Shown here piece by piece: positions 4,488 through 24,400 of a stretch of 32,000 nt of DNA. The notes beneath the pieces were generated by a model. That model was given only the letters and a program-made list of their open reading frames with translations. It was not told where the DNA came from and did not search any database. Positions within the stretch are counted from its first letter, which is position 1, and every line of letters begins with the position of its first letter. This DNA comes from Paenibacillaceae bacterium (GTDB taxonomy: Bacteria; Bacillota; Bacilli; Brevibacillales; Brevibacillaceae), in the NCBI GenBank assembly GCA_041920505.1, contig JBHGXV010000049.1, positions 88,734-120,733 of the forward strand. The letters run 5' to 3'. The translations under genes were made by a program, and so were the position numbers.

Positions 4488-4562
4488 GCATCCGTCTCCC
4501 CTCGCAGGTACTTGCGGCACGCGCTACCGGGTGACGGATCATGAAGTGATGGCAGACTGCCG

Positions 4563-5153: not shown

Positions 5154-5166
5154 GCGTTCTCCCATC

Positions 5167-5409: not shown

Positions 5410-5465
5410 TCTCTCTCGTCCCTCGTCCCTTCGCTGGGAAGGGAAAAAGATTTTAACCACATTCA

Positions 5466-5494
5466 AGTGTAGCAAATGGGGGGGAGGGAGACAA
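5466..5494 (-). promoter_or_regulatory. Candidate sigma-A promoter for the DUF4321-maf-radC-mreBCD-pbp2 transcription unit
   Basis: On the minus strand: TTGTCT (5494-5489), 17-nt spacer, then TGCTACACT, an extended -10 (TACACT at 5471-5466). It lies about 55 nt upstream of the 5409 ATG, just downstream of the terminator at 5522-5573. Confidence 0.5.
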
Positions 5495-5521
5495 TCCCCG
5501 AATCCGTTCGTGACGCTATCG

Positions 5522-5573
5522 TATAAAAAGACAGACCCTTGTTGCAAGCAAGACTTGCCCCAACAGTCTGTCT
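5522..5573 (-). terminator. Rho-independent terminator after the SPOR-domain gene
   Basis: On the minus strand: TGA stop, GAAAAG, then AGACAGAC...(inner GCAAG/CTTGC pairing)...GTCTGTCT followed by TTTTTAT. The outer 8-bp arms are 5566-5573 and 5529-5536. Confidence 0.7.
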
Positions 5574-5579
5574 CTTTTC

Positions 5580-7027: not shown

Positions 7028-7744
7028 TTAGTAAAACGGGTTCGTACGGTTGGCCGGCTGCGGCGCGATGATCGGCAACGGGTTCGGGAAGTACGGCTTC
7101 AGCACGGGGGCATAGTACGCGGTCAGCGTAAGCTCCGCCGTGATCTGCCGGTACTTGTCGTCCTGCGGATGGAAGTAGATGAAATTGCCGCCTACGCCGT
7201 TCATTTTCACCTGCTCGACGCGAATCGCTCTCGGCAAGGAGAGCACTTCCCGGAAAAACCGGTAGACCTGCTCGTACGTCCCGGTGATTTTGGTGGAGAT
7301 GCTGACCGTCTCAAGCCCCGGATACTCCTGCTTGTTTCCGTTCGTCCCTTCGCTGAGCGGGGTGAAGCTGACTGTATTCTGAGCGGAGGCGCCCTTTGTG
7401 CTTCCGTTGGCGCCGTCCTTGTCCTCGCTGTTTGACAGCCCGACTCCTTCCATGCTGACCCCGCTGACCGTCTCCACCCGGGTCATGTCCAACATAATCT
7501 GGTCCAGGTAAGGCGCTTCGGGAATTTTTTGCTGGTAGCCCGGCGGAAATCGCGCCGCTTCCGTCTCTGTTTTCTGAGTGGACGCCCGCCTGAGCGCCTG
7601 GAGAAACGACTCTTCCTGCTGCAAATTTTGCTGCAAGGTTTCTGCTTCCTTTTTCAGCGGAACGGTAAAAAAGTAGTAGAATCCCCCCGCCAGCACAAAC
7701 AGCGCCATCAGGATCAACAGAACCGACTGCCGGTTCAACGTCAC
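7028..7744 (-). CDS. pilO: Type IV pilus assembly protein PilO
   Basis: 238 aa: N-terminal TM (VLLILMALFVLAGGFYYFF), coiled coil (KKEAETLQQNLQQEESFLQAL), then IPEAPYLDQIMLDMTRVETVSGV and a C-terminal ferredoxin-like region. It follows pilM-pilN. Confidence 0.75.
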   Translation of the reverse strand: MTLNRQSVLLILMALFVLAGGFYYFFTVPLKKEAETLQQNLQQEESFLQALRRASTQKTETEAARFPPGYQQKIPEAPYLDQIMLDMTRVETVSGVSMEGVGLSNSEDKDGANGSTKGASAQNTVSFTPLSEGTNGNKQEYPGLETVSISTKITGTYEQVYRFFREVLSLPRAIRVEQVKMNGVGGNFIYFHPQDDKYRQITAELTLTAYYAPVLKPYFPNPLPIIAPQPANRTNPFY

Positions 7745-7773: not shown

Positions 7774-8433
7774 TCAGTGCGGATTCGCGGCGCTGGCGGG
7801 CTCCTCTTGCGGAGCGTTCCCGTTCCCCGCCGCCTTGGGCGCGTCGGCGGACGGACGGTTTTTCTTGACCGCCAGTTCAAACGTAATCTGGTAGACGGGC
7901 GCCACCTTGCCGTCTCCGATCAGTCCCTCGGAGGCTTCGCCCTTGCTCTTTCCGAGCGACCCTACCTTTGTCAGCGTAAACGAGTCGGAGTGCTCCAGCG
8001 CCTGCATAAACCCGACCACTTCCTCGACGGTGCCGAATTTGGCGCTCAGTTTCAGCTTGTCCGGCTGGTTGAACTCAAGACTGTTCAGCACGCCGCCCGT
8101 CGGCATCAACCGGGCAATCGTATCCAAAAGCGCGTTGGTGTCGACCGATGCCTGATCGATCACCGTCGGCAATTCGACGAATCGGGCGATGTCCGGCTTG
8201 TCCGCCGACTGCTGGTTTACCGTCTGCAACTGTTGCTGCAAACGGGTCTTTTCCGCCTTCACTTGCTCAATGCGCTGCGCTAACTCCGCTTTCTGGGCCA
8301 GCGCCTGCCGGTAGTCGTGATACAAAAATCCGCCTCCGGCCAACAGCACGGCGAGACCGGCCAGCGCGATGAGAGGGACTTGCCTGATCTTCCGCTTCGG
8401 TCTGGGCAACAGGTTGATGTTGATCGTCGTCAC
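7774..8433 (-). CDS. pilN: Type IV pilus assembly protein PilN
   Basis: (GTG) TTININLLPRPKRK carries the INLLP signature of the PilN N-terminus, followed by a TM, a coiled coil and a C-terminal domain. The GTG start overlaps the pilM TGA (GTGA at 8430-8433). Confidence 0.85.
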   Translation of the reverse strand: MTTININLLPRPKRKIRQVPLIALAGLAVLLAGGGFLYHDYRQALAQKAELAQRIEQVKAEKTRLQQQLQTVNQQSADKPDIARFVELPTVIDQASVDTNALLDTIARLMPTGGVLNSLEFNQPDKLKLSAKFGTVEEVVGFMQALEHSDSFTLTKVGSLGKSKGEASEGLIGDGKVAPVYQITFELAVKKNRPSADAPKAAGNGNAPQEEPASAANPH

Positions 8434-9491
8434 GGTTGATTCACATCCTTCATCCCCAGCCCGACAGCGACAGAAAACGGCAGCGGCGAGAAGCCCTGTT
8501 CCATTGCCGTCACCCGCTCATGGCCGCACACGTGCACCGGCACCGACAGCCGCTCCTGCAGGTACAAGGCCACTTTGCCAATGTCGCCAAATTCGCCTGA
8601 AACGCAAATCTGTTCAATCTTTTTGCGTCCCTCGTTCATCGAATACTGGTAAAAGCTCATGATCCGATTCACTTCGGCAAACAGGTCATTGGCGTACCCG
8701 CTGAACTGTCCCTGCTGCTCCAACAGCGTCACGCCCTGACGGGACAGCCCGATCGACTCCTGCGGCCGGGTCTCGTCGTGAAACGGCACCGGAAGCGGGA
8801 TGTAGCGCATAAACTCGGGAATCCCCCCGGAAAAGATCGCGGCGTCGACGCCGGTCAGGGTAATGTGCAAAAGCAACACACCCGGCCCTTTCACCGTCGG
8901 CAACTCCCCCTCCAGCGCACGGTAGAGAGCGAGCGGTTCGATGTCGACCGCCACCGGCTTCAATCCCGCCAGCCGCGCCGCATCCACGTACCCTTCCACC
9001 GCGTCGCGCGGGGCGGCCACGACCAGCACGTGCAACTGTTCGCGCGGTGTTTCCCCGGTCTCCTGGGCGGCCGCGGCTTCGCCGGGCGAAAGCTGCTCGG
9101 GCGCAAGCTTGACGTAATCGAAGACGGGATCGGCGAACGGCAGGTGCAAGGTGTTTTCCATCTCCACCTCCAACAGGTCGCGAATCTCCTTGTCGGGAAC
9201 GAGCGGAATCGGCGTCCGCCGCATCACCACGATCGGCAGCGGAACGGACAGGACGACTTCTCTACCTTTGCAGCGCCAGTCGCGGACGATTTTTTCCAGC
9301 TCGAACGAGACCCACTCCAGGTTGTGCAGCCGATGGTTCTGAATCATTCCGTGCTCAATCGGAACGGTGGCGTGCCGGCGAACCCGGATGGCGCTGCCGA
9401 CCCGCACTTCCACGAGCCGCATCGCGTACGGCAAAAATTGCAGACCCAGCCGCCATTTTGTTTTTCTCGCGGGGAACAAACGCCATGCCAT
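8430..9491 (-). CDS. pilM: Type IV pilus assembly protein PilM (actin-like ATPase fold)
   Basis: 353 aa from ATG 9491, with RBS AGAGGTGA 5 nt upstream. The track start at 9572 would overlap pilD. Size, position upstream of pilN and the soluble two-lobe composition fit Gram-positive PilM. Confidence 0.75.
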   Translation of the reverse strand: MAWRLFPARKTKWRLGLQFLPYAMRLVEVRVGSAIRVRRHATVPIEHGMIQNHRLHNLEWVSFELEKIVRDWRCKGREVVLSVPLPIVVMRRTPIPLVPDKEIRDLLEVEMENTLHLPFADPVFDYVKLAPEQLSPGEAAAAQETGETPREQLHVLVVAAPRDAVEGYVDAARLAGLKPVAVDIEPLALYRALEGELPTVKGPGVLLLHITLTGVDAAIFSGGIPEFMRYIPLPVPFHDETRPQESIGLSRQGVTLLEQQGQFSGYANDLFAEVNRIMSFYQYSMNEGRKKIEQICVSGEFGDIGKVALYLQERLSVPVHVCGHERVTAMEQGFSPLPFSVAVGLGMKDVNQP

Positions 9492-9516
9492 AGTTTCACC
9501 TCTACTGGGTACAAAA

Positions 9517-10284
9517 TTACAAAAACAGCGACAGATACGCCCTGAGCAACCCCGCACCCCAGAAATGGGCAACCAGGGCTCCCGCGCACAAGGCCGGAGC
9601 GAACGGGATAGCCCCCTTCCACCGGGCTTTTCCGGCGGCCATCAGGGCAACGCCCGCCACAAGACCAATCAACGAAGCGAAAAACAGTGCGACCAGCACG
9701 CCTGGCCAGCCGACCGCCAGGCCGAGGACGCCGAACAGCTTCACGTCCCCCATCCCCAGCGCGCCCGGCTTCACCGTGGCGACGGCGAGCAACAGGCCAA
9801 ACCCGACCGCGCCGCCGATCAGCCCGCTCGCCCACGCCTGCGGCTCGGCAAGAAGCCCTAGCGCCAGCACCAGCGGAAAAAACCAGAGCAACACGCGATT
9901 CGGCACCAGCATGTACACGATGTCGCTGATCGACACGATCATGCACAAGGAAACGAGCGAAATCGACAACAGTAGGCCAAAAAAATCGCCTTTGTGCGTC
10001 GCATAGGCGAGCACAAAGAGCACTCCCGCTGCCAGTTCGCCGACAGGATACAATCTGGCGATGCGTTCGCCGCACGTGGCGCACGTTCCTTTTCGCAAGA
10101 GAAACCCGATGACCGGAAGCAAATCGACCGCATTCAGCCGCCTGCCGCAGTGCGGACAGCGCGACGGCGGCGTCACGACCGACTGCTTCTTCGGCACCCT
10201 CAGGGCCACCACGTTGAAAAACGAGCCGAACGCAAGGCCGAGGAGGAAGAAAAACGGGTAGAAAAACAGGTCCAGGGGCGTCAT
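9517..10284 (-). CDS. pilD: Prepilin peptidase / N-methyltransferase (A24 family; PilD/ComC)
   Basis: 255 aa and polytopic. It has two Cys pairs (CPHC...CATC) in the first cytoplasmic loop and a GMGDVKL (GxGD) active-site motif. RBS AAAGGAGAAGG lies upstream. Confidence 0.92.
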   Translation of the reverse strand: MTPLDLFFYPFFFLLGLAFGSFFNVVALRVPKKQSVVTPPSRCPHCGRRLNAVDLLPVIGFLLRKGTCATCGERIARLYPVGELAAGVLFVLAYATHKGDFFGLLLSISLVSLCMIVSISDIVYMLVPNRVLLWFFPLVLALGLLAEPQAWASGLIGGAVGFGLLLAVATVKPGALGMGDVKLFGVLGLAVGWPGVLVALFFASLIGLVAGVALMAAGKARWKGAIPFAPALCAGALVAHFWGAGLLRAYLSLFL

Positions 10285-10304: not shown

Positions 10305-10344
10305 TCAAACAGGAAAAAGGACACGACACCACGGGTGTCGTGTC
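10305..10344 (-). terminator. Rho-independent terminator/attenuator between pilA and pilD
   Basis: Perfect 11-bp stem (10320-10330 GACACGACACC paired with 10334-10344 GGTGTCGTGTC) with a 3-nt loop. On the minus-strand transcript it is followed by CCUUUUUCCUGUUUG. It ends about 20 nt upstream of the pilD RBS. Confidence 0.7.
10328..10344. repeat. 17-nt direct repeat, copy A (ACCACGGGTGTCGTGTC), forming the loop and one arm of the terminator hairpin
   Basis: 16/17 identical to 10686-10702. Read directly from the sequence. Confidence 0.8.
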
Positions 10345-10710: not shown

Positions 10711-11280
10711 TTAAGGTGTGGAAGGCTTTGCTTTACTAGCCTTCGAAAAATCGACCTTATCGATATCTTCTTCTTTTACATATTCTAAATCAGAGTCAGC
10801 TCCAGCACTATCCAGTTTAATGTAATATCTATAAGTTGAACCATTCTTAGTTACATACACAGCAGTATTGGTGTCATCGTATTCATTTCCACTGCTGCTT
10901 TCTGGATCAACGATTTTGGAAAAATATCCATCATCTTTCAACTGGTCTAATGTGATTACCATATAACTGTCCGCAGCCAAAGTATCTCCTTGTTGCAATA
11001 GTCTTTCACCATCATCGTTCACTCGGGTTGCTGTAATAGCTGTTGTGCCCGTATTCGGCTTGAATCCACTAATCGCCACTTTTTGTTTAGCAGCTTCAAT
11101 CATCTGTCTCGCATTCGCCTTATGCGCTTCCTTCTTGGTGTTCCCCGTAATCCCCGTAATCGCCGGAACGGCGATCGCTGCGATGATCCCGAGGATGACG
11201 ATGACCGCGAGTAATTCGATCAAGGTCAAGCCCCGCTCGTCTTTGACAAACCGTTTGAGCCACTTTTTGATCGTTTCCAT
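10711..11280 (-). CDS. pilA: Major type IV pilin (prepilin with class III signal peptide)
   Basis: METIKKWLKRFVKDERG/LTLIELLAVIVILGIIAAIAVPAI has Gly-1, Glu+5 and a hydrophobic alpha1-N helix. Total length is 189 aa. It sits immediately downstream of pilC and is followed by a terminator, consistent with a highly expressed major subunit. Confidence 0.9.
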   Translation of the reverse strand: METIKKWLKRFVKDERGLTLIELLAVIVILGIIAAIAVPAITGITGNTKKEAHKANARQMIEAAKQKVAISGFKPNTGTTAITATRVNDDGERLLQQGDTLAADSYMVITLDQLKDDGYFSKIVDPESSSGNEYDDTNTAVYVTKNGSTYRYYIKLDSAGADSDLEYVKEEDIDKVDFSKASKAKPSTP

Positions 11281-11303: not shown

Positions 11304-12512
11304 TTAATGTATGGTTTCATAAATTTTAAACATCGGGAGCATGATGGAGGCGATGATCGTCCCCACCACCGCTGACACCGCGAGAAGCATCAGCGGTTCG
11401 ATCAGCGACTTCAGCTTGTCGACCGTGTTTTCCACGTCGGCTTCGTAGAAGTCGGCGATCTTGGCCAACATCTGGTCTAAGGCCCCGGTCTCTTCGCCGA
11501 TGGCGATCATGTGCGTCACCAGAGGCGGGAACACCCATGACTTGCGCAGCGGATCGGAGAGGGCTTTCCCGGAGCGCAGGCTTTCCTTGGCCTCGTCTAT
11601 TACCTGGGCAATAACCGCGTTGCCTATTACCTTTTCTACCACAGTGAGCGCCTGAAGGACAGGCACAGAACTGTGAAACAACGAACCGAGCGTGCGGGTG
11701 AAGCGGGCGATCGCCGCCTTGCGGAACAGGATGCCGAAGATTGGCATGCGCAACTTGAAGTAATCAAAGGCGTAGCGCCCCTTCGGCGTCCCCAGCACCA
11801 GCCGGACGGCGATCACCAGCGAAGCGACGGCGGCAACCCAGATGTACCACTCCTGCACCATGCTGGAGCTTACGCTCATGACGGCTCTGGTCAACGCGGG
11901 CACCTCGGTCCCGGCCGCTTTCAGCATGTCCGCAAACTGGGGAACCACGGTCGTCAGCAAAAACGCGACGGCGATGACGGCGACGATGCCGACGATGATC
12001 GGGTAGGTCATCGCCGACTTCACTTTTTCGACCGTAAAATACTCTTTTTCGAACTGGATAGCGAGCCGATCCAACACCTCGTCCAGGTTCCCGGCCGTCT
12101 CCCCGGCGCGGACCATGTTGACGAAAATCGCCGGAAACACCTTGGGATACTCGGCGATCGCGGCCGAGAGCGCCATGCCGTTGCGCAGCTTGTCGGCCAC
12201 TTCTGACAGCGTGTTTCGCAACGCCTTGCTTTCCGATTGATTGCTCAGGATGTTGGTCGCATCGACGATGGACACGCCCGCGCGGATCAGGGTGGCAAAC
12301 TGGCGGCAGTAGATGACGAAGTCTTCCATCTTCACCGGTTTGCCCAGGGTGATCTCCATCTGCCACACCGATTTTGGCTTCTCCTCGACAGCTTTGACGA
12401 TGTAGCCGCGCTTCTTCAATTCGGCGACCGCCGACGCCTTGGACGGAGCGGCCAGCGTACCCTTCTGCCGTCGGCCCCGCTCGTCGATCACCTGGTACGC
12501 GTAATCCGGCAT
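11304..12512 (-). CDS. pilC: Type IV pilus platform protein PilC (GspF family)
   Basis: 402 aa with the duplicated T2SS-F architecture (FCRQFATLIRAGVSIVDA... and FTRTLGSLFHSSVPVLQAL...IGEETGALDQML) and 3 TM segments. Confidence 0.92.
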   Translation of the reverse strand: MPDYAYQVIDERGRRQKGTLAAPSKASAVAELKKRGYIVKAVEEKPKSVWQMEITLGKPVKMEDFVIYCRQFATLIRAGVSIVDATNILSNQSESKALRNTLSEVADKLRNGMALSAAIAEYPKVFPAIFVNMVRAGETAGNLDEVLDRLAIQFEKEYFTVEKVKSAMTYPIIVGIVAVIAVAFLLTTVVPQFADMLKAAGTEVPALTRAVMSVSSSMVQEWYIWVAAVASLVIAVRLVLGTPKGRYAFDYFKLRMPIFGILFRKAAIARFTRTLGSLFHSSVPVLQALTVVEKVIGNAVIAQVIDEAKESLRSGKALSDPLRKSWVFPPLVTHMIAIGEETGALDQMLAKIADFYEADVENTVDKLKSLIEPLMLLAVSAVVGTIIASIMLPMFKIYETIH

Positions 12513-12516: not shown

Positions 12517-13563
12517 TCACTCCCCTTCCGGCAGGTAGAGTTTTGCCTTTTCGGCGGAGATGAGCCCTTGTTGCATCAGCTCTTTGATCGACATCTCCAA
12601 CGTATGCATGCCTTGGGCCTTGCCCGTCTGCATCAGGCTCTTGATCTGATGCACCTTTTCCTGGCGGATCAGGTTGGCGACGGCGGGCGTGTTGACGAGA
12701 ATCTCCGTCGCCGCCACCCGCCCCTTGCCTTCCGCCTTGGGAAACAGCCGCTGGGACACCACGCCGACGAGCACGGACGCAAGCTGGATGCGGATCTGCG
12801 GCTGCTGGTGGGCGGGAAACACGTCGATGATCCGGTCGATTGTCTGGACCGCGTCCGAGGTGTGCAAGGTGGCGAGGACCAGGTGGCCGGTCTCGGCCGC
12901 AGTGATCGCGGTGTGGATCGTTTCCAGGTCGCGCATCTCCCCCACCAGGATGACGTCCGGGTCCTGCCGCAGCGCGGCGCGCAGGCCGTTGGCGAAGTTG
13001 TTGGTGTCAAAGCCCACTTCCCGCTGGTTGATGATCGACCGGCCGTGCCGGTGCAGATACTCGATCGGGTCTTCCAGCGTGATGATGTGGCGGGACATCG
13101 TCTGGTTGATGTAATCGATCACGGCGGCAAGGGTCGTCGACTTCCCGCTGCCCGTCGGTCCGGTCACCAAAAGAAGCCCCTGCGGCTTTTGCGCTAATCT
13201 GGTCAAAATCTCCGGCATGTTGAGACTTCTAAGCGACGGTACCGTCGTCGGAATCACCCGGGCCACCAATCCGATGCAGGAGCGTTGCATGTAGGCGTTG
13301 ACCCGAAACCGGCTGACGCCGGGAACGCCGTAGGAGAAGTCCAGTTCGCCGCGATGGAGGAACAGTTCATACTGCTCCGGCTTGATCAGGGTGCGGGCCA
13401 TCTGCTCGGTCATCGCCGGTGTGAGCAGCGTTTGTCCGTAGCGCTTCAGTTCGCCGTCGACGCGGAAAATCGGCGGCGCGCCCACCGTGATGTGCAAGTC
13501 GGACGCGTGTGAAGAGTACGCGAGTTTGAGCAAGTGGATGATGTCAATCGACTTCTCTTCCAT
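12517..13563 (-). CDS. pilT: Twitching-motility retraction ATPase PilT
   Basis: 348 aa. ASDLHITVGAPPIFRVDGEL, Walker A GPTGSGKSTT, Asp box, Walker B ILVGEMRD and the His box TGHLVLATLHT are all present. It lacks the long N-terminal domain of PilB. Confidence 0.93.
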   Translation of the reverse strand: MEEKSIDIIHLLKLAYSSHASDLHITVGAPPIFRVDGELKRYGQTLLTPAMTEQMARTLIKPEQYELFLHRGELDFSYGVPGVSRFRVNAYMQRSCIGLVARVIPTTVPSLRSLNMPEILTRLAQKPQGLLLVTGPTGSGKSTTLAAVIDYINQTMSRHIITLEDPIEYLHRHGRSIINQREVGFDTNNFANGLRAALRQDPDVILVGEMRDLETIHTAITAAETGHLVLATLHTSDAVQTIDRIIDVFPAHQQPQIRIQLASVLVGVVSQRLFPKAEGKGRVAATEILVNTPAVANLIRQEKVHQIKSLMQTGKAQGMHTLEMSIKELMQQGLISAEKAKLYLPEGE

Positions 13564-13572: not shown

Positions 13573-15231
13573 CTATTCGTTGACAGCGACGCGCAGCACT
13601 TCGTCGATCGTGGTCTGCTCCTGAAGCACCTTCAAAAGGCCGTCGTCGATCAGCAGGATCATGCCGTTCTTGACGGCGTGGTAGCGGTATTCCTTGGCCG
13701 GACGGTTTTCCAGGATCAACCGGCGCAGGCCGTCGTCCACCAGAAGCACCTCGTGGATCGCCAGCCGCCCCCGGTACCCGGTCATGTTGCAACTGCCGCA
13801 TCCCTCGCCCTTGACCAGCTTTTGCGGCTTCAATCCCCGCCGCATGAGCAGCGTGCGCTCGTGCTCGGTCGGTTCCACCTCCCGCTTGCATTCGTTGCAG
13901 ACGCGCCGCACCAGCCGCTGGGAGACCACGCCGGTCAGCGCGGACGCGACAAGGAACGGATGGATGCCCATGTCGACCAGCCGGGTGATCGTGCTGGCCG
14001 CGTCATTGGTGTGCAAGGTGCTGAGCACCAGGTGGCCGGTAAGCGCAGCGCGGATCGCGATCTCGGCCGTCTCCAGATCGCGAATCTCCCCGACCATGAC
14101 GATGTTCGGGTCCTGGCGCAGGATGGCGCGCAGCCCTTTGGCAAAGGTCATGCCTGCGGCGGGATTCACTTGCACCTGGTTGATGCCGTCCAGTTGGTAC
14201 TCCACCGGATCTTCAACCGTGATGATGTTGACTTCCTCGGAATTGAGGTGGTGAAGCCCGGCGTACAGCGTGGACGTCTTCCCGCTTCCCGTGGGGCCGG
14301 TGATCAGCACCAGGCCGCTCGGGCGTTCGATCATGTCCTTGAACAGCTTGTGATTGCGCTTGTTGAAGCCCAATCGGTCTATATCATTGATCGCCTGGGA
14401 CAAGTCAAGCAGGCGGAGCACCACTTTTTCTCCGTAGACCGTCGGCAGCGTGGACACGCGAATGTCGATCTCTTTCATGTTGACGTCCAGCTTCATCCGG
14501 CCGTCCTGCGGAATCCGCCGCTCGGCGATGTTGAGATTGGCCATGATTTTCAGCCGGGCGCTGACGATGCCGGACATGTGGCGGGGGAGCGTCCGCTCCG
14601 TCCGCAGGACGCCGTCGATGCGGAAGCGCACGCGCAAGTTGTCTTCCTGCGGGTCGAAGTGGATGTCGCTCGCCCGCGTCTGCACGGCCTGCTGGATCAG
14701 TTGGTTGACCAGCCGCACCACCGGCGAATCCTCGTCCACCAGCTCTGTTTCCATCGCCGCCTGGTCGGTCGGCAAATCCTCCATCAGTTCGTTGACCGAC
14801 TCCTGCAAACTGTAGTAGCGAATGATGGAGCGCTGGATTTCGTCCTTGGTGGCGATCGCCGGTTCGATCTGAAATCCGGTCGACATCCGCAAATCTTCGA
14901 TGGCGAAGTAATCCAGCGGGTCCACCATCGCCACCATCAGCTTGTTACCGTCTTTTTTGAGCGGAATGCACTGGTAGCGTTTGGCCATCGCCTCGGTGAT
15001 CACGCTGGTCAGCGACTGGTCAAATTTGTACTTGAACAGGCTGACGTGGGGAATGCCGAGCTGGAACTCCAGCACCTCGATCAACTGGTTTTCCGATATG
15101 TACCCCTGCTGCAGCAGGACGTCCCCCAGCTTCTGCTTGCTGACCTTTTGCTCCTGCAAGGCCTTCTGCAACTGCTCTTCCGTGATCAACCCGCTTTCGA
15201 CAAGCAGGTCGCCAAGCCGTTTGCGTATCAT
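13573..15231 (-). CDS. pilB: Type IV pilus assembly (extension) ATPase PilB/GspE with an N-terminal MshEN-type domain
   Basis: 552 aa with Walker A GPTGSGKTST, Walker B IVMVGEIRD, His box TGHLVLSTLHT and the tetracysteine zinc motif CNEC...CGSC. The N-terminus carries tandem RLGxxLVxxGLI...Q motifs. The ATG overlaps the upstream stop (ATGA). Confidence 0.93.
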   Translation of the reverse strand: MIRKRLGDLLVESGLITEEQLQKALQEQKVSKQKLGDVLLQQGYISENQLIEVLEFQLGIPHVSLFKYKFDQSLTSVITEAMAKRYQCIPLKKDGNKLMVAMVDPLDYFAIEDLRMSTGFQIEPAIATKDEIQRSIIRYYSLQESVNELMEDLPTDQAAMETELVDEDSPVVRLVNQLIQQAVQTRASDIHFDPQEDNLRVRFRIDGVLRTERTLPRHMSGIVSARLKIMANLNIAERRIPQDGRMKLDVNMKEIDIRVSTLPTVYGEKVVLRLLDLSQAINDIDRLGFNKRNHKLFKDMIERPSGLVLITGPTGSGKTSTLYAGLHHLNSEEVNIITVEDPVEYQLDGINQVQVNPAAGMTFAKGLRAILRQDPNIVMVGEIRDLETAEIAIRAALTGHLVLSTLHTNDAASTITRLVDMGIHPFLVASALTGVVSQRLVRRVCNECKREVEPTEHERTLLMRRGLKPQKLVKGEGCGSCNMTGYRGRLAIHEVLLVDDGLRRLILENRPAKEYRYHAVKNGMILLIDDGLLKVLQEQTTIDEVLRVAVNE

Positions 15232-16832
15232 GGTGTTCCCCCCGTGCCGTTGGATTGGGAGTTCGGCGTCAACACGGGAATGTCGGCGGGACGCGCCACA
15301 TTGGGGTCATTGGCAAAGTCACCCAAACCGCCCGACTGAGCCCCGGGCGAAGAGGCGGACGAAGCCGGCGCGTTTCCGCCGGCGGGCGAGTCGGCGGACG
15401 TTCCTCCCGTCGGCCCGAAAATGGCCGTTTGACCGTTGCCGTGATCGAGGATCTGAGTCGGTGTGCCTATATACACAATACGCGGAATAGGTCTGTAGTA
15501 GTCCTTCGACACCAGTTGATCCTTCTCCTGCCCGGATTCGCGTTTTTCTCCCGTGTCTTTGACGCGGTACACCTGCGCGAGCACGCCTTCTTCCCCGGGC
15601 TGTGCCTCCCGTTGCTCGCCGGTGGGCAGCTCGCCGTCGATGAGAAACACCGTCTCGGGCTGGAAGGTCTCCACGCTTTTTACGACCACATCCGTATCCG
15701 TCTTGTCCTGCCGGTTGCCGTACAGGCCGACGACGAGCGCGTTGCCGTCGATCCGCGCGTGGATGTAGACCGGATGCGCAAACGTGTTTTCCAGCTTCAG
15801 GTCCATTTCCCCGTCCCAGATCGCCGCGTCCAGCCCCGGCTTCGCGTACGGCTGCGGCCGCAGGTGCGCATGCCGCTCGACGATGGCGAGATTGGCTTTG
15901 AGTGCCGCCCAGTACAGCGTGGAGGCCGTCTGTCCGATGCCCAGTTGGATGCCGCCTTCCTTGTGTTTCAGCGGCTCATCCTTTGTCCCGATGTAGCCGC
16001 TCCCCTCTCCGAACGGGCCCGCTTCCTTGGCAAAGGAAAAGACCTGGCGGCTGGCGATGACGTGCCCGTCCAGCCGGGCGACAGCGGCGGCGATGTTTTT
16101 TCGCGCGGTCTCAACTCCGGCGGGAAGCGGCGTCGACGCCTGGGCCAACAAGGTGTCGATCTCCTTGAGCGCATCGCTCATCACCGCCGGCTGCTCCTCC
16201 TTCACCGCCAATGCCACCGTCCGGTCCGGCAGGAAACGTCCCAGCGCCAGTTCGATGCTTTTCAGGCTCTCTTCCACCAGTACGGTTTGTCCCAGGCGGT
16301 GCGGCGTAAACCGGATCTGTCCCCCCGCGATCTCTAGTCTGGCGTTGGCCGCGGACTGGTCCGCTTCACGCTTGATCGCCTGCAGCCGCTGTTCGGCCGC
16401 CTGCCGGTCCCACCGGTACTTCAGCTCCACCGCCGGATTGACCGGCTCATCCAGGAGGCTGTCCCACCACTTGCGCCACCCCTGCGCGCGCCGGGAGGTT
16501 TCCACGAGCGACTGACAGGTGGCGTCGACGTCGTAGGTCAAACCGATCTCCTGCGGTGTTAGCGTCCAGGAGCGTTCCGCCGCCGTGAGCCGGATCGGTT
16601 TGCTCTCTGCCGCCCGCAGCAGAGCCGAAAGACGCTGCCGCGCTTCCTGCTCTGTCAACGCCCCGAGCGACAGCCCGCCCACACGGACATCGGGTGCCAG
16701 CCTGTCCGGGGCGATTGCCGCTTGGATCGGGCCGCCCGCCAGAAAGGCGAGCGCAATCGACAACAACACCATCAACAGGTAAAGGAAGAGGGCATATGCG
16801 CGATCTGTGACGTGTAAGCGAATTCGTTCCAT
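15228..16832 (-). CDS. VanW-family protein, YoaR-like architecture: TM, putative PG-binding region, VanW domain, G5 domain and a low-complexity tail
   Basis: TM: AYALFLYLLMVLLSIALAFLAGG. VanW block: GGIQLGIGQTASTLYWAALKANLAIVERHAHLRPQPYAKPGLDAAIWDGEMDLKLENTFAHPVYIHARIDGNALVVGLYG. G5-like block: FQPETVFLIDGELPTGEQREAQPGEEGVLAQVYRV...PRIVYIGT. The ATG at 16832 is preferred (RBS GAGGTGAAGG) over the track's GTG at 16841. The stop overlaps the pilB ATG. Confidence 0.8.
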   Translation of the reverse strand: MERIRLHVTDRAYALFLYLLMVLLSIALAFLAGGPIQAAIAPDRLAPDVRVGGLSLGALTEQEARQRLSALLRAAESKPIRLTAAERSWTLTPQEIGLTYDVDATCQSLVETSRRAQGWRKWWDSLLDEPVNPAVELKYRWDRQAAEQRLQAIKREADQSAANARLEIAGGQIRFTPHRLGQTVLVEESLKSIELALGRFLPDRTVALAVKEEQPAVMSDALKEIDTLLAQASTPLPAGVETARKNIAAAVARLDGHVIASRQVFSFAKEAGPFGEGSGYIGTKDEPLKHKEGGIQLGIGQTASTLYWAALKANLAIVERHAHLRPQPYAKPGLDAAIWDGEMDLKLENTFAHPVYIHARIDGNALVVGLYGNRQDKTDTDVVVKSVETFQPETVFLIDGELPTGEQREAQPGEEGVLAQVYRVKDTGEKRESGQEKDQLVSKDYYRPIPRIVYIGTPTQILDHGNGQTAIFGPTGGTSADSPAGGNAPASSASSPGAQSGGLGDFANDPNVARPADIPVLTPNSQSNGTGGTP

Positions 16833-16837
16833 TTCCT

Positions 16838-18067
16838 TCACCTCTGTCGCTTCGGCTCATCCCCATCTTCGGCACCCAGCTCGTCCAACGCCAGCAGCAC
16901 GTCGGATGCCGATTGGCTGTGTTCGTTTTCCGCGGGCTCCCAAGCTTTCGCCAGCTCGTCACGCATCGGCACCAGTTCTTCCATCTGCAAGACGGCAGGC
17001 GTCTCCTTCATCGCCAGCTTGTCCTCGTGCGCCGGTCTGAGGTAGACGCTATCCGACGGTTCTTTCCGGGGCGCGGCTACCGTCATCGGCTGTTCTTCCT
17101 GAGGACGCTGCCAGGTCTCGTCATCCAAAAGCGACGAGAGGTCGGAGACGAGCAACTCCTCATCCTCTCTCCAGTCGGACTCGTCCGCCGCCATAGCGGG
17201 ATGCTCGGGCTTTTCCCCGTCAACTTCGCTCCCCTCGTCCACCAGCCGCTCCAGGGAACGGCGGCGCAGCCATTCTTCCACCTCATCTTCTGTTTCCGTC
17301 AGATCCTGCCCGATGGCCGGGGCGAGGGCGGCGGCGGGTATCGCCGCCGGTTTTTCATGGCTCGCGGTCGGGTACGCCGCTTCCGCGACCGCTGATTCCG
17401 CGACTATCGATTCCTGCTGTGTCTCATCCGCGCCGTCTGCCGCTTGCCCTGCGGTTTGCAGATCGCTTGCCTGCAACGGCACCTCACCTGCACCGTCCGG
17501 CTTCAGCTCCGTTTCTTTCGCCGTCTGCGTCTCGTCTTCGTGTTCTTCGCTCTGCCGGTCGGCTTGCGACTCGGCGGCATGGGCCAAAAACTGGCGGATC
17601 AACTCGTCGATCGCTTCCTGATCGCTGGTGTAGATCGCGCCTTCGGCCGCTTCCTCGGCTCCCGCTTCGTCCGCGCGGGCAAGCGGGGGCAAGGATGCTG
17701 TATGCCTTGCATCCCCTTCCGGTCGGGGCATCACCGTCGTGGACATAAACGCGTCTTGTCCGCTGTCCGCCGCCAGTGAGGGTTCCTCAAGTGCCGTGGC
17801 CGCGTTGTTGACCGACCGCCACAGGTAGACACCCCCCAGCAAAAAGACAACGGCCGCCGCACCGTACCAGACGAGCGGAAGCCCCGCTTGGGCGACGCCG
17901 AAGAAAAACAGCAACACGCTCAGCATGGCGAACCAGGTCGCCCGGCGAAAGCTCTGTTCGATTCCGATCGGCAGGGGCAGCAGCCGTTTGCCGATCAGGG
18001 ACAAACAACCGCAGATACCCACAGCAATCCATGCTTTAATCAAACCGGCACCGCCTTTTCCTTTCAT
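16838..18067 (-). CDS. Membrane protein with 3 predicted N-terminal TM helices and a highly acidic low-complexity tail of about 325 aa; no family recognised
   Basis: 409 aa. TM candidates are LIKAWIAVGICGCLSLIG, ATWFAMLSVLLFFFGVAQAG and LVWYGAAAVVFLLGGVYLW. The remainder is E/D/A/Q-rich (for example DEAGAEEAAEGAIYTSDQEAIDELIRQF, ETEDEVEEWLRRRSLERLVDEGSEVDGEKPE). It is the first cistron of the minus-strand pilus operon, and its TGA lies inside the VanW RBS/start region. No strong RBS precedes ATG 18067, so the start is uncertain. Confidence 0.6.
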   Translation of the reverse strand: MKGKGGAGLIKAWIAVGICGCLSLIGKRLLPLPIGIEQSFRRATWFAMLSVLLFFFGVAQAGLPLVWYGAAAVVFLLGGVYLWRSVNNAATALEEPSLAADSGQDAFMSTTVMPRPEGDARHTASLPPLARADEAGAEEAAEGAIYTSDQEAIDELIRQFLAHAAESQADRQSEEHEDETQTAKETELKPDGAGEVPLQASDLQTAGQAADGADETQQESIVAESAVAEAAYPTASHEKPAAIPAAALAPAIGQDLTETEDEVEEWLRRRSLERLVDEGSEVDGEKPEHPAMAADESDWREDEELLVSDLSSLLDDETWQRPQEEQPMTVAAPRKEPSDSVYLRPAHEDKLAMKETPAVLQMEELVPMRDELAKAWEPAENEHSQSASDVLLALDELGAEDGDEPKRQR

Positions 18068-18394
18068 TACAAAAATTTCTGGTTCATTCGACTTATTTCG
18101 CGACGACGAATGGTATTTCCTGCCTGTTCACAATATGGTACTTTTTCTTTAGGAGATTCTTGGCAAACGTTGCCGCTGTTGTCACCGAACCTCAATCCGC
18201 GCTATACTGGATACTCGTCACCATCAAGCCATTCACTGGGTTTCTTTGCCACAATCTTTTTAAAAAAAGAGCGAAAAAAAACAACTGCAATCTACTACCG
18301 TACATCTTACAATAGTCCTAGACACTCTGAAAACAGGAAGGGCAATTTTTCTACAGAAATTTTAAAGAGAACGTCGAGCAATCGGGGGATGGAC
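18068..18394. promoter_or_regulatory. AT-rich divergent control region between the pilB-side operon and the minor-pilin operon
   Basis: 327 bp without a credible ORF. It is markedly AT-rich and contains A-tracts (TTTTTAAAAAAAGAGCGAAAAAAAAC at about 18257-18282). Genes diverge from both ends. Confidence 0.55.
18179..18208 (+). promoter_or_regulatory. Candidate sigma-A promoter for the plus-strand minor-pilin operon
   Basis: TTGTCA (18179-18184), 18-nt spacer, TATACT (18203-18208). This would give a leader of about 180 nt. Confidence 0.4.
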
Positions 18395-18901
18395 GTGGAA
18401 AAGACATGGCGCTGCGAGCGCGGCTCTTCGCTGATTGAGGTGATCTTTGCGATACTGGTCATCTCTGTGATTTCGCTTTCGTTTATCAAGTATTTCTATC
18501 AGGCGGAGCAGACGTCCGCCGTCTCCGACCGGAAGCTGATCGCCGCCAATCTGGCGCGGCAAGTGGCGGAACAGTACAAGACGAGGCCTTTTTCCGACCT
18601 CCTGAATCTTGCCGACCCTGACCGGTCAACACCCGGCGCTCCTCCTCCCGCTCCCTACTACGACGACAGTCTGCCGGACAACACAGTCAATGGGGTTACC
18701 TACCACACATTTGTCGAGGTGCAATCCCTGCGCGAAGACGCCCGTCTGGGGGCTTATGCCGATCGATTGCTTCGGCTTCGCGTCACCGTTTTTTGGGATT
18801 TGTCGGACAAGAATGACTTCCGCTCCCGTCCGCTTGATTTTCGCAAGCGCATTTCGTCAACGGTGGAAACATTTATGACAAGAGAGGATCTGCGCCGATG
18901 A
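18395..18901 (+). CDS. Minor (pseudo)pilin with a prepilin-type N-terminal cleavage/methylation domain (PilV-like)
   Basis: (GTG)EKTWRCERG/SSLIEVIFAILVISVISLSF has Gly-1, Glu+5 and a hydrophobic helix. GGGGGA lies 5 nt upstream of GTG 18395. The in-frame ATG at 18389 is an alternative. The track's 17888 start is an artefact crossing the intergenic region. Confidence 0.75.
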   Translation: MEKTWRCERGSSLIEVIFAILVISVISLSFIKYFYQAEQTSAVSDRKLIAANLARQVAEQYKTRPFSDLLNLADPDRSTPGAPPPAPYYDDSLPDNTVNGVTYHTFVEVQSLREDARLGAYADRLLRLRVTVFWDLSDKNDFRSRPLDFRKRISSTVETFMTREDLRR

Positions 18902-19539
18902 AAGCACTTCCGCACTGGAAACGCGAAGAAGGATTGAGCCTGGTCGAGTTGCTGGCTGGCTTGCTGCTGTTTTCGGTAGTCATCACCATGTTGTACGGTG
19001 TCCTACTGTCTGCGATCTCCCTTCAGCAAAAGGTGTCGGCGGAAACCAGCTTGCGCAATCATGCCGACCTTTTGGTAAACAACATTCTTCAATCGTTGAA
19101 AGACATGGATCAAGTCATTGACGTGACAGAATACTTCCGGCAAAAGGGCATTTCTGACACTGACGTCCCCAGTGCCATCTGGATGACGGAACTGGTCAAC
19201 GAAGGTACGGAAAGCCAGACGTTCGTTCACTATCTCCTGCTGATTCAGAGAGATTCCGCGCATCCCTCTGTCTATCATCTAATCCGGGAAACATACACCA
19301 ATCGGGACACCACGATCAGTGACACCCACCACATCAACGGTGCGATCCATCCTGACAACCAGACGCAACTGGACGACTCACAGTATCCCCTTGTGTCCGG
19401 CTCACGCATGAATGTCACCTACTACGAAGGATACGAGGTTGAGAGCGTGCTCGACCTGCATGTATGGATGGCCAAACTGGGGAAAGATGGCAAGCCGTTG
19501 GATCCGTACGAATTTCACAGCCGGATCAACGTGAACTAG
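18898..19539 (+). CDS. Minor pilin with a prepilin-type N-terminus (PilW-like)
   Basis: MKALPHWKREEG/LSLVELLAGLLLFSVVITMLYGVLL has Gly-1 and Glu+5. The start overlaps the upstream stop (ATGA at 18898-18901). Confidence 0.75.
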   Translation: MKALPHWKREEGLSLVELLAGLLLFSVVITMLYGVLLSAISLQQKVSAETSLRNHADLLVNNILQSLKDMDQVIDVTEYFRQKGISDTDVPSAIWMTELVNEGTESQTFVHYLLLIQRDSAHPSVYHLIRETYTNRDTTISDTHHINGAIHPDNQTQLDDSQYPLVSGSRMNVTYYEGYEVESVLDLHVWMAKLGKDGKPLDPYEFHSRINVN

Positions 19540-19557
19540 CCGAAAGGGGGCAACCGC

Positions 19558-21423
19558 GTGAAGATTGCCAAGGAAGAGAAAGGATACGCCGCCCTCGTCG
19601 CGATTCTGGTAATCCTGCTGTTGACCATCATCGGCACCAACCTGTTGTCTACCGTGATGAGCAGTCTTGTTCACGTGCGCAAGACGGAATCGCGCGGCGA
19701 GGCGGAATATTTTGCCCGGATGGGGATGGACGAGGCAATGGCCCGTCTTTCAAAAGCGATCGAGGAAGTCAACGAACAGGTCGCCAGCCATCCCGACTGG
19801 ACGATGGCTCCCTCCGATTCGATTGCCAGTACATATCAGACCATCCTCGACAGCCATTTTCCGATTGGGGCCAACCAGTTCCAAACGGTAACCGGCCCGA
19901 ACGGTGAACAGTGGCTCACCTCAGAGCCTGTCACCGTGGACAGCGGTATCAATGGATCGTACGAAATCATGGTCAACCGGAAAGTGATCCGCTCGTGGCA
20001 GGAGGACTCTCCCTACGTGGAGCGCTTCCTGATTCGCGTCATCGGCAAATCGACATCCGTAATTCCGGAAACGAAAGTATTAGAAGCAAAAGTATACGTC
20101 AACACGTATCCGGGCGAGTTCCATTACGTCCTCTCGTCGCCGGGCCCCATCACCGTCAACGGGGCCGCCTACGTCGAAGGCGACGCATACGCTGACTCGT
20201 TTACCCTGTGGGATCACGCGGAATACTTTTACAACGGTGTCACCTACGAGAAACATACGGCCCAGCCTACCTCTTATCCCGCGTTTGTCGGAACCATTGG
20301 CGTGCCGTACACCACGCAAGAGGATTTGAGAAACAACCGGTTTTTTGCCAAGGATGAGACGGGTGATTCCCCGTCAAATTTCGATCCCGACGTAAAGGAT
20401 ATTACCTCTGACTGGTACAAGCGCTTTTCCATGTCGCCGCGGTTGTCCCTGACGATGAAGCCGGATTTCAATTTGGATGATATGGGGGGTATCGCCGCCA
20501 TCGTCGATAAAAAGGCTAGCTTCACTGTGGCCTTACCTTTCATAAAGGACCCGTTTCCACGTGACCCGGAAATAAATCAGCGGTTTGTAGAAGTTGGGTT
20601 TAATTCTGAACCAATTAAAGAAAATAGCATTGTCGTGGAAGGCGGTCTTTTGCTGAAAGACAACGCCACTCTGGAGTCTGTGAAAGACGTAGAAGTGAAC
20701 GGTACCTTGTTTATGGAAAAAAACCTGGACGGGGACAAGAGTCTTGCGACGTTGAAGGCCGACCGCATCTACATCCACGGAGATAGCAGCTCAAACTCGG
20801 CCTCGACCAGCTTAAGTGGCAATCTCGAGGTCGGATCGTACATCTATATCAGGGGAGACGCCGTGATTCAGGATCTGCATTTCACGGGGAAGATGTACAT
20901 CGACGGCAACCTTACGATCCAAGGCAACTTCGATATGAACGGCACCATTTACGTGAACGGCACGGTGGATATTACAGAGGAAGACGCTTCCGCCAACTGG
21001 GACCCCAAACCTGACTCAACCGTTGTGATCTTGTCCTCCGGCAAGATCGAGGCGTACAACCTGAATCTGTTTAACGATACTCCACGAAAGATGCATGCGT
21101 TCCTCTACAGCGAGCAGGACATGACGCTGTACGGGATCGGCAGCAACATGACGTTCATCGGCGGACTGCACGGCCGATCGATCACGTTGAACGCGGTGAA
21201 GGGTACAGTGAATGATTTGGGCAGCGGCACGCTGAGTATCCAAAGTCAGGAGGGGTTGAAACCAAAGGACTCCCGGCTAAAAATCCTGTTTAACCCGGCT
21301 CTGTATGAATCACCTCCTCCGGGATTGCCGACAAGCCGCACAGTCTCGATTACAACCGTTTCGTACGAATTGGACACGTTCGACGCCGATCATGCCAAAG
21401 AGTTATCTCCGGCGTTGCGCTAA
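19558..21423 (+). CDS. Large PilX/PilK (GspK-like) minor pilin lacking Glu5, with a beta-helix-like C-terminal region
   Basis: (GTG)KIAKEEKG/YAALVAILVILLLTIIGTNLL is a PilX_N-like hydrophobic N-terminus with Val, not Glu, at +5. RBS AAAGGGGG lies 7 nt upstream. The C-terminal third shows recurring G(N/D)-h-x-h strands (GNLEVGSYIYIRGDAVI, GKMYIDGNLTIQGNFDMNGTIYVNGTVDI). Confidence 0.7.
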   Translation: MKIAKEEKGYAALVAILVILLLTIIGTNLLSTVMSSLVHVRKTESRGEAEYFARMGMDEAMARLSKAIEEVNEQVASHPDWTMAPSDSIASTYQTILDSHFPIGANQFQTVTGPNGEQWLTSEPVTVDSGINGSYEIMVNRKVIRSWQEDSPYVERFLIRVIGKSTSVIPETKVLEAKVYVNTYPGEFHYVLSSPGPITVNGAAYVEGDAYADSFTLWDHAEYFYNGVTYEKHTAQPTSYPAFVGTIGVPYTTQEDLRNNRFFAKDETGDSPSNFDPDVKDITSDWYKRFSMSPRLSLTMKPDFNLDDMGGIAAIVDKKASFTVALPFIKDPFPRDPEINQRFVEVGFNSEPIKENSIVVEGGLLLKDNATLESVKDVEVNGTLFMEKNLDGDKSLATLKADRIYIHGDSSSNSASTSLSGNLEVGSYIYIRGDAVIQDLHFTGKMYIDGNLTIQGNFDMNGTIYVNGTVDITEEDASANWDPKPDSTVVILSSGKIEAYNLNLFNDTPRKMHAFLYSEQDMTLYGIGSNMTFIGGLHGRSITLNAVKGTVNDLGSGTLSIQSQEGLKPKDSRLKILFNPALYESPPPGLPTSRTVSITTVSYELDTFDADHAKELSPALR

Positions 21424-21480: not shown

Positions 21481-24400
21481 TCACAGTTTTTTCAGCTTCG
21501 AGCTGACGACAAACGTTCCGCTTAATTTGTAGGTGTTGACGACCTGTTTGCCGCCGCGTCTGGTATAGTTGTCGGTAATCCGTATATACACCTCATACGG
21601 TTTGTCTTGTCCGGTGATCACAATCTGGGAGGACTTGAGCGGCAACCAGTTGTTGATCACGGGCGGAGTGCCGGTGGATACATCCACGACAGCATACTCG
21701 ATTTTGCTGATGTGCCAATCCCAATCACCGGCGGATTCAGGGTCGATCGTCATATTTCGGTTAGCGTCAAACAGCGTACCCAATCGCAGCTTCGCTGTAT
21801 CGGAAGGTTCCGCGACATCGGAAGCAAAGTACGAGATCCCAGCATGATCTTTTTGCAAGGTGATGACGATCGGTTTGTTCGAAACGGTGGCAGAGGCCGT
21901 CGGTACGGCTGCCAGACGATATCCCGGACTGATGAAGAACACATCCCATTTTTGGGCGACGTGACGCGTTTTGGTTTGCTCGTTTTCCGGATCATAGACC
22001 TTGTCGTAGGCGTCTATGACCACCTTGTAAAAGCCCGGACCACCGTCAATGAAGATGTCAGACGCTTCCCAAAGCGAACCGGACGTGGCGGTCAGCGTTC
22101 CCCCCGTGACTGTGGAACCGTCGGACACCGTATCGCCGCTAATGTTCAGTTTGATAACCTTATACTCTACTTTGTCTACTCCGCTGACGTCGTCTGTCAC
22201 ATTCACCGCAAGCGAAATGTAGCGGTTGTCGTCATTCTTCGTGGCCTGGCGGATAAAGCTGTCGTCTACGATTATGCTCGGCGGCGCGTCGTCCAGCGTA
22301 TAGGTCTTGCTTGCCACCTGCCCCGCTTTGCCGAGTGAATCGACGGCCTGCGCATACACCGTCACACTGCCCTGATTGATCACAGGCGTGTCGTAGGTGC
22401 CCATGGCTCCGGAAAGTGTCTGCTTGTTGCCGCCTACCGACGTCCATACATCGATATGGTCAATCGGGTTCGTGTCCGTGGCGGTAATCGTAATCCCCTT
22501 CACGACCTTTTGAACCGCATCAACCGTACCGCCGCTGATGGTGACCACAGGGCCGGACTTGTCGATCTTGATCGTCTGCTCCGTCCAGTCGTTATCCGAC
22601 GCGCGTGCCTTGTAGCCGATGGTGGTGACGCCCTCCCGATTGATCAGGATCGGTCCCGTATAGGCGGTGGGGTCGCCGTTGTTGATCGTATAGACGCGCT
22701 GGCTCGTAGCAAAACTGTCAGGGAAGACCAGCTTGACGTACACATCCCGATCCAGCCAGTTGCTTACGTCCGTCACCGGCTGTGTCAACTGGGCGTCGTA
22801 GAAGACGAGGAACTGCGTTTGCTGATCAACCACGGTTACTTGGCTAGTGGCCGATTTACTCGGGTTGTCGACCGAGGTGACGGTAATCGTCGCCGTACCC
22901 GGTCTTACCCCGGTTACCGTCCCGGATTCGTCAACGGTTGCCACGTCGGGGTTGCTCGATTGCCAGGTGACCGACCTGTTCGTCGCGTTTGACGGGGTGA
23001 CCGTCGCGGTCAAGGTCGTTCTCTCTCCGACCTGCAAGTTGACGTTTGCGGGGGAGACCGTAACCCCCGTGACCGGGATCGCGGATTGAACCGTCACAGA
23101 GACGCGAACGGTTTTGTCCACGGCAAATCCGCCTGTTGCCTGTACCTCCACCGTGTAAACGCCGTTGTCGGCAAGTTCGATCCTGTATGGATCAGTAAGA
23201 GACTGCCAGCTACCTGCTGACGAGCCTTTCGTCACCCGATACTTGTACGAAACCTTGCCGCCGGAGTCAGGAACAAGCCGATCGATCGACACAATGGCAG
23301 GCCCGCTGGACACAGCGCCGCTCGCAAGCGATCTCCCGCTCAGTTTCTCCGTTATGACGAGCGAGGGAACAAGCGGCAACTCTGCCGTCAGGTCACGGTT
23401 TTCCGTGACATTCCGGTAGGTGACCAGCACAACCGTGTTGTCCGTATTCTCCTTGAAAGCCATGCTTGTCACCGGATACACAAGGCTTCGTCCGTCCTGT
23501 TCGAGAGTGACGGCGTCAACCGCCGTGTTGCCCTCATCCGCAACCTTCCTGATTTGCCCCGCTTCGTTTGCCTCATAGGTAAACCCTCTGTCGTCATGAA
23601 GTTTGACCGTGAGTTTGACGGGGTCCAGCGGAGCCTCGACGGCGATACTCTTTTGCTCTCCCTTGTACGAATATTGCAAGAGCGGGTTTTGCAGACGCTC
23701 GTTTAGCGCCCAGTCCACGGATACGCGCAGTGTCCGGGTTTGCCCGGTCGAAGGCTGAAACACTCCGTTATTGATGTTGACCGGATCGAACGTAATTTCT
23801 GCACGTGTCCCATCTGCTTCCGGAGAGGTGCGGACAAACGAATCGCCCGAATTCACCACGGTAATTCCTTTGGGAAGATGTTGCACCAACGTAACGTTGG
23901 AAAGTTGCCCTTGATCTGATTTGTCCAAATCACCAATTGGCGCAATCGAATACCGGATGTCAAAGACATTGTTATTCAGATTGGTTTGTACGGATTTTAC
24001 CAGTCCGGACACGTCAGAGCCATAGCTCATCGTTGCCTGGAAAGTCGGTTCTTGCTTGTCAACCACTTTGATATGAACCGGGTGGATGTTTTTGACTTCC
24101 CTGACCGTCCCGTCGAAATACCGGTAGGTTAGCGTCATGTCGTTAAACACGTAGTTCCCGGTTTCGAGAAACTCCAGCGGCAGCATGTACGATTGCGGAC
24201 TGGGCGTTGGCCCGCCGACCGTGTACGGGACGTCGTTCATGTTGATGACCGCGTAGTCGCCATCCACATACGCCTTGGCTCCCGCAGCCAGCCGTACCCG
24301 GTCTTTTAGCTGCTGGTCCTTGATCCGGACTTTCAGTTGCACCTCGCTCAAGGCCAAACGATTGATATCGTCGGTAATGGAGCGGAATACGCTGCTCAGA

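Follow-up and report, generated by a model that had tools for sequence, protein, structure and literature searches.

VanW is now established as a catalytic domain of LD-transpeptidases (LDTs), in which Cys, His and Asp form a triad (Bollinger et al., PNAS 2024, PMC11348318). When the catalytic cysteine was replaced in Ldt4 (C286A) or Ldt5 (C298A), cross-linking was lost and some tripeptide was still made from tetrapeptide, and when seven foreign VanW proteins, including Bacillus subtilis YoaR and Enterococcus faecalis VanW, were assayed for LDT activity, four were silent, their identities not being stated (PMC11348318). A 2025 review of LDTs lists some VanW proteins without transpeptidase activity and with roles that are unexplained (PMC12729407). 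Here we describe a VanW protein encoded immediately upstream of pilB, the gene for the assembly ATPase of a type IV pilus machine, in a window of 32,000 nt from a member of the Brevibacillaceae (Paenibacillaceae bacterium, contig JBHGXV010000049.1, positions 88,734 to 120,733; all coordinates below are those of the window). The protein carries glycine in place of the catalytic cysteine and it belongs to a clade of VanW proteins that lack this cysteine throughout. The reading that we favour, with a probability of about 0.5, is that it serves as a non-transpeptidase, wall-directed accessory, or pseudo-enzyme, of the Bacillales type IV pilus machine, being anchored in the membrane and holding peptidoglycan. 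An earlier examination of the same DNA, referred to below as the original prediction, considered VanW domains to be without an established biochemical function, a view outdated since the 2024 work on LD-transpeptidases.

The protein shares with Ldt4 of Clostridioides difficile (CDR20291_1285) the order of a transmembrane (TM) helix, PG_binding_4, VanW and G5 domains and a disordered C-terminus (PMC11348318) and it keeps the triad's His and Asp at their columns. It differs from Ldt4 in having Gly for the catalytic Cys, in changes at four other near-invariant residues, in falling within a separate Cys-free clade and in the location of its gene within a type IV pilus operon, whereas the C. difficile ldt genes do not belong to an operon (PMC11348318). 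Since the architecture of Ldt4 is shared and the catalytic cysteine is absent, the product is, as judged from its sequence, an Ldt4-like protein without the acyl-carrier residue. B. subtilis YoaR and enterococcal VanW belong to the same Pfam family, and close homologues of the protein are publicly annotated as "vancomycin resistance protein YoaR". Assignment to the glycopeptide-resistance VanW proteins (NF033128, NF033122, NF033123) was rejected because the score against the NCBIfam vanW-gen model was 41.1 bits, relative to a cut-off of 365, and no van genes were found near the gene, its neighbours being pilus genes.

The gene lies on the minus strand, where an open reading frame (ORF) extends over 15228..16841 as originally claimed, and the VanW gene proper occupies 15228..16832 and encodes 534 amino acids. 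At its 3' end the stop codon TGA (15230-15228) overlaps the ATG of pilB (15231-15229) as ATGA (15228..15231), exactly as had been predicted. At the 5' end a GTG codon (16841-16839) overlaps the TGA (16840-16838) of a preceding 409-amino-acid ORF, and the start had been placed within this stop region. The overlap exists but the in-frame ATG at 16832, 5 nt past the upstream stop, is the likelier start because it is preceded by a putative ribosome-binding site, GAGGTGA, it coincides with the start of the public gene call (534 amino acids) and the N-termini of all homologues align there. On the same grounds, GTG 16841, which would add three residues, was rejected. The upstream junction is tight with either start codon, and residue numbers below are counted from ATG 16832.

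A TM helix, preceded by basic residues, is located at about residues 14-32 or 14-34 (16731..16793 for the latter), with a hydropathy maximum of 2.72 at residue 14 and a helix at residues 10-40 in the AlphaFold2 (AF2) model, and the positive-inside rule predicts that the N-terminus is cytoplasmic and that the ectodomain lies outside. All three Pfam domains in the ectodomain score above their cut-offs, in agreement with the TM, VanW and G5 layout originally proposed: PG_binding_4 (PG4; PF12229) at residues 89-197 (16242..16568; 57.3 bits, cut-off 22.1), VanW (PF04294) at residues 244-371 (15720..16103; 99 bits, cut-off 27, covering profile positions 3-130 of 130) and G5 (PF07501) at residues 384-457 (15462..15683; 29.8 bits, cut-off 23). 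They are followed by a tail rich in Pro, Gly, Ser and Ala (15231..15461), which is predicted to be disordered from its composition and from a predicted local distance difference test (pLDDT) value below 50. A first AF2 run, with a 10-sequence alignment, modelled PG4 well (pLDDT 80-92) and the VanW and G5 parts poorly (pLDDT 60.8). It was superseded, for residues 200-475, by a run with a 99-sequence alignment which yielded a pLDDT of 89.6 and a predicted template modelling score (pTM) of 0.86 and placed Gly300 at the N-terminus of a confidently predicted helix. Thus, according to the model, the fold of the VanW region is intact despite the loss of the cysteine. Foldseek searches against the PDB produced matches to the G5 part alone (E ~1e-5 to 1e-4; HP0197-G5, IgA1 protease G5, SasG, Aap and RpfB, with 4fzq and 6oh1 among the entries), and no solved VanW structure was found either there or by sequence search. 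The tail carries conserved short motifs, FANDPNV and PADIP, which may be docking motifs. Among relatives with Gly at the cysteine position (the Gly subclade) they take the forms F(A/E)NDPN(V/M) and P(A/P)DIP, and tails of the Brevibacillus and Aneurinibacillus proteins with Ser or Thr at that position (the S/T group) carry PxDI(x)P and a C-terminal (V/I)IYLN.

The former active-site block reads LGIGQTASTLY and is encoded at 15912..15944 on the minus strand. The motif had been read correctly in the original prediction but its extent, given as 15912-15941, is 3 nt longer. Gly300 (codon 15933-15935) fills the catalytic Cys column of GGGVCQVSTTLY, and it is found where VanW-type LD-transpeptidases carry the cysteine of their GGGxCQ block. 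When 1.84 billion representative proteins were searched with a profile of the protein and the nine homologues nearest to it, 14,469 relatives were obtained, the best 150 of which, together with others, formed an alignment of 166 VanW sequences. Of these, 132 have Cys at the Gly300 column and the others have Gly (13), Ser (12), Thr (7) or Val (2), and this is the sole Cys column conserved at the level of at least 90% among the 132 Cys-bearing proteins. The suspected Cys-to-Gly change was therefore borne out by the alignment. Moreover, GIGQ is present in all ten closest homologues, at 46-54% identity (from Brevibacillus sp. SYP-B805, B. fluminis, B. ginsengisoli and uncultured relatives), and, because Gly is common to all 13 members of the subclade in the 166-sequence alignment, the change is real and fixed and a sequencing error at the Cys codon was rejected.

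Among the 132 canonical proteins, at the same threshold of at least 90%, a single His column is conserved, that of His323, and the conserved Asp columns are those of Asp335 and Asp344; all three residues are retained in the protein under study. His323 (15864-15866) and Asp335 (15828-15830), which delimit the segment 15828..15866, are assigned by conservation as the probable His and Asp of the published triad. Four further near-invariant canonical positions are altered (R243A, N268A, G296Q and G297L). Within the Gly subclade, residues 290-350 constitute the most conserved stretch, with 52% invariant columns as against 8-29% in other regions, which points to the former active-site pocket being still under selection, either for binding or for a different chemistry.

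Loss of the cysteine extends well beyond the Gly subclade. In 13 pilB-adjacent VanW proteins the Cys column is occupied by G (5), S (3), T (2), V, D or N and never by Cys (0/13). Proteins outside the Gly subclade have N, A, T, G, Q or S at the His column, so that His itself is confined to that subclade, and D or E is found at the Asp column. In the Bacillaceae-type members the VanW profile can be recognised in its C-terminal half alone. The N-terminal helix, the G5 domain and the disordered tail are kept in all 13. The nearest relatives in the representative library (P0134-P0146, P0149 and P0153, from Aneurinibacillus and Brevibacillus) are likewise all Cys-less and several of them share contigs with PilB matches. 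In a neighbour-joining tree of the VanW and G5 region of 87 sequences, 30 tips descend from the common ancestor of the 13 linked proteins and none of them carries the cysteine (0/30), a result that holds in 52 of 60 bootstraps. With the entire pilB-linked clade lacking the Cys, and most of its members also lacking the His, the earlier idea of a non-catalytic variant is strengthened. The simplest history suggested by these sequences is a single loss of the nucleophile at the base of the pilus-linked clade, after which the other catalytic residues drifted. The tree puts four further Cys-less VanW proteins outside the clade, and these represent independent losses. VanW lineages with Ser or Thr at the Cys column also exist outside the clade in soil metagenomes (see below), so that, on the sequence evidence, the nucleophile has been lost several times in the VanW family. 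Separately, four clade members from Aneurinibacillus and a metagenome (P0134, P0136, P0137 and P0144) have Ser at the Cys column and keep the His and Asp; they could carry a Ser-His-Asp triad, so that not every member of the clade need be inactive.

The genomic position of the gene was examined in a synteny survey of 16 loci, which were collected from two sides. When nine Bacillales PilB homologues (65-70% identity) were sampled, with no VanW gene presupposed, a gene encoding VanW and G5 domains lay immediately upstream of pilB at seven of the nine loci, in Brevibacillus sp. SYSU BS000544, B. composti, Aneurinibacillus terranovensis, Bacillus methanolicus, Anaerobacillus sp. MEB173, Ammoniphilus resinae and Robertmurraya. 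Sampling from the VanW side gave six pilB-adjacent loci out of six: one on a metagenome contig (L015) and five in species-representative genomes encoding GIGQ, which are all from Brevibacillus and have pilB, pilT and pilC directly downstream. The adjacency of VanW and pilB genes, which the original prediction had singled out for a neighbourhood survey, is therefore conserved. The intervening gap is at most 48 nt in every other surveyed locus with the gene, and the position is kept while VanW identity drops to about 20-27%. Control loci were provided by 24 soil metagenome contigs (L016-L039) carrying S/T-type VanW lineages from outside the clade, and none of these had pilB in the flanks of the VanW gene. 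A metagenome scan with a narrower alignment yielded one pilB-linked contig and otherwise mostly distant soil VanW proteins with Ser or Thr, and a word-indexed protein search produced 12 VanW matches, the same 12 being recovered with a 24-sequence alignment.

These results can be combined into a working model of how a non-catalytic accessory might operate. The N-terminal helix would hold the protein in the membrane beside the assembly platform and the PG4, VanW and G5 ectodomain, with its flexible tail, would extend into the thick wall. There the ectodomain would grip peptidoglycan but not cross-link it, with the stem peptides probably lying in what was once the donor groove. Such a grip would secure the machine in the wall against the forces of extension and retraction and/or it would mark, and keep open, the site of fibre passage. 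Wall binding, and any role in piliation, are properties that we infer from sequence. A more far-reaching version, which we advance tentatively, is that the Cys-free clade as a whole constitutes a dedicated pseudo-LD-transpeptidase of the Bacillales pilus machine that couples the platform to peptidoglycan and creates or guards the fibre passage, with the Gly subclade representing, maybe, a switch from transpeptidase to hydrolase.

Parallels exist for both elements of the proposed role. The LysM- and AMIN-containing pilus accessories TsaP, FimV and the N-terminus of PilQ employ a wall-binding module to place or stabilise the pilus machine (PMC10653833 and references listed in PMC4471445) and, by analogy, the VanW protein probably works in a similar way. 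Their folds are unrelated, the VanW protein lies outside those families and no LysM or AMIN domain was detected in it by Pfam at E ≤0.01. Moreover, TsaP, FimV and PilQ serve a secretin in a diderm envelope whereas the host of the VanW protein has no secretin and a thick wall. The dLytM proteins EnvC and NlpD exemplify degenerate peptidoglycan-enzyme folds that are reused as non-catalytic factors. The VanW protein resembles them in combining a wall-enzyme fold that lacks catalytic residues with continued selection on the protein, but both the fold and the partner system differ and an activator role is neither shown nor implied for the VanW protein.

Several observations weigh against a non-catalytic, pilus-specific role. 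The synteny survey is small, at 16 loci, and the pilus operons of Paenibacillus glycanilyticus and Tumebacillus flagellatus, two of the nine PilB-sampled loci, contain no gene for a VanW and G5 protein, so that the VanW gene is not universally required. Peptidoglycan binding by PG4 and G5 domains has never been shown by experiment (PMC11348318). Furthermore, the conserved pocket of the Gly subclade, with His323 and Asp335, could fit residual catalysis equally well.

The last of these points leads to the rival that survives best, although we consider it unlikely, namely that the protein is a hydrolase in which His323 and Asp335 activate water. As an LD-carboxypeptidase or LD-endopeptidase it would shorten stem peptides or cut their links locally and thin the wall at the point of pilus passage. 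The tripeptide that Ldt4 C286A and Ldt5 C298A continue to generate from tetrapeptide (PMC11348318) provides a precedent, but the activity of these Cys-to-Ala mutants was described only as "some" product. Both the His and the Asp are unchanged throughout the Gly subclade, where the pocket is the most conserved part, and the four clade members with Ser, His and Asp would offer a possible alternative triad. Nevertheless, most of the pilB-linked clade is without the His and the residue at the Cys column varies freely (G, S, T, V, D or N), and for these reasons catalysis is not the conserved function of the clade; in the VanW protein itself the four additional changes at near-invariant canonical residues also speak against hydrolysis.

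It is improbable, although the surroundings would suit it, that the protein acts in general wall maintenance, with its place before pilB reflecting gene order and no specific role in the pilus. Housekeeping wall proteins of the VanW family are common in Bacillota (PMC11348318), the neighbourhood is one of cell-envelope genes, with Mur ligases upstream and mreBCD downstream of the pilus cluster, and two pilus operons do without a VanW gene. Against this, the position is held in six named genera though identity falls to about 20%, all clade members of known context adjoin pilB, compared with 0/24 of the non-clade S/T loci, and the VanW gene overlaps or abuts pilB. Finally, we regard as very improbable an active LD-transpeptidase relying on a different nucleophile or a different cysteine, despite the predicted fold and the His and Asp being intact, because Gly cannot carry an acyl group, the cysteine is essential for transpeptidation in Ldt4 and Ldt5 (PMC11348318), and conservation of the one Cys present, which lies in the PG4 region near residue 108, fails even in the nearest homologues.

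The genes that accompany the VanW gene on the minus strand encode pilus components. PilB (13573..15231) is identified by T2SSE (460.9 bits) and MshEN (78.6 bits) matches, it scores 660 bits against TIGR02538, just under the cut-off of 675.65, and it is 88% identical to PilB of Brevibacillus ginsengisoli. Residues 5-57 match the MshE-type motif for binding cyclic di-GMP (NF053729, 2e-22), and this N-terminus suggests control of pilus assembly by cyclic di-GMP. There follow genes for the retraction ATPase PilT (12517..13563; TIGR01420, 496 bits, cut-off 319), the platform protein PilC (11304..12512; T2SSF, 214 bits; NF052607, 395 bits, under the equivalog cut-off of 700) and a major pilin candidate (10711..11280; N_methyl, 30.5 bits; TIGR02532), and then pilD (9517-10284), pilM (8430-9572), pilN (7774-8433) and pilO (7028-7744). 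Pattern matching located the strongest minus-strand terminator-like hairpin (10320..10344; 11 pairs, 7 of them G-C) directly 3' of the pilin gene and before pilD; it could be an attenuator giving an excess of pilin transcript. Between 18067 and 10344 the same approach found only weaker minus-strand hairpins with 3-4 G-C pairs, at 18025, 17927, 17865 and 13188. The VanW gene thus belongs with the pilus genes, as originally proposed, given the common strand, the tight or overlapping junctions and the lack of a strong minus-strand hairpin (7 or more G-C pairs) before the end of the pilin gene. Its Cys-free clade is inherited together with, and almost certainly transcribed with, the pilB-pilT-pilC-pilin-pilD-pilMNO operon of Bacillales.

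The 409-amino-acid ORF immediately upstream of the VanW gene (16838..18067, minus strand) is probably the first cistron of the transcription unit. It encodes a hydrophobic N-terminus with two to three helices followed by about 320 residues of strongly acidic, low-complexity sequence, a layout reminiscent of the TM and acidic regions of the FimV/HubP polar organisers, and it yielded no family match in profile scans and no tblastn match. ORFs of 292-567 amino acids fill the same position in sister loci, without detectable sequence similarity, and the recurrence of this non-conserved upstream ORF is accompanied by that of divergent minor-pilin genes. In three sister loci a PRC-barrel protein (PF05239, ~250 amino acids), which is not present in the window, is encoded between the upstream ORF and the VanW-like gene (L009 3623-4348, L014 3804-4592 and L042 3859-4617). 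Near the 5' end of the unit, promoter-like matches occur solely at about 18156-18208 in an AT-rich divergent intergenic region and include a sigma-70-like consensus match on the minus strand (18156..18185). Beyond it, on the plus strand, lie three minor-pilin-like genes (18389..21423, the first start being approximate), recognised by N_methyl motifs and hydrophobic N-termini.

Further upstream, on the minus strand, are genes for a surface protein of 1314 amino acids with VWA and Big_2 domains (21481-25425), which is possibly a pilus-associated adhesin, a MurC/Mpl-like Mur ligase (25591-26982), a folC-like gene (26975-28363) and valS (28392-31250), the last with a T-box leader (31112-31365; 109 bits). 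The Rfam scan revealed no riboswitch near the pilus operon and only this T-box before valS. The clusters of Brevibacillus sp. SYP-B805 (L002) and Ammoniphilus resinae (L041) are also flanked by a gene for a VWA protein of similar kind. The pilus cluster as a whole is flanked by valS-folC and by DUF4321-maf-radC-mreBCD (1224-5649), and in Tumebacillus valS-folC directly abut pilB.

A full-text literature search, within the library searched, revealed no link of VanW to type IV pili or pilB, or of G5 to pilB and pilT; one paper mentions VanW and pili, as separate insertions, and a 2011 survey of Gram-positive type IV pili makes no mention of such a gene. Within the same literature no wall-directed component has been assigned to the Gram-positive type IV pilus machines, and the pilus-linked Cys-free VanW clade appears to be undescribed. 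How these pili, lacking a secretin, cross a thick wall and brace themselves against it is a standing question in the field. The presence of a Cys-free VanW clade at pilB in six named genera joins this question, of pilus passage through the wall, to that of the roles of VanW proteins that are not transpeptidases, and it provides in the VanW protein a testable candidate for anchoring pili in, or passing them through, the thick wall. If the proposed role is correct, the clade would do in monoderms what wall-binding proteins associated with the secretin do in diderms and it would supply a first function for the "non-LDT" VanW homologues of the 2025 review (PMC12729407).

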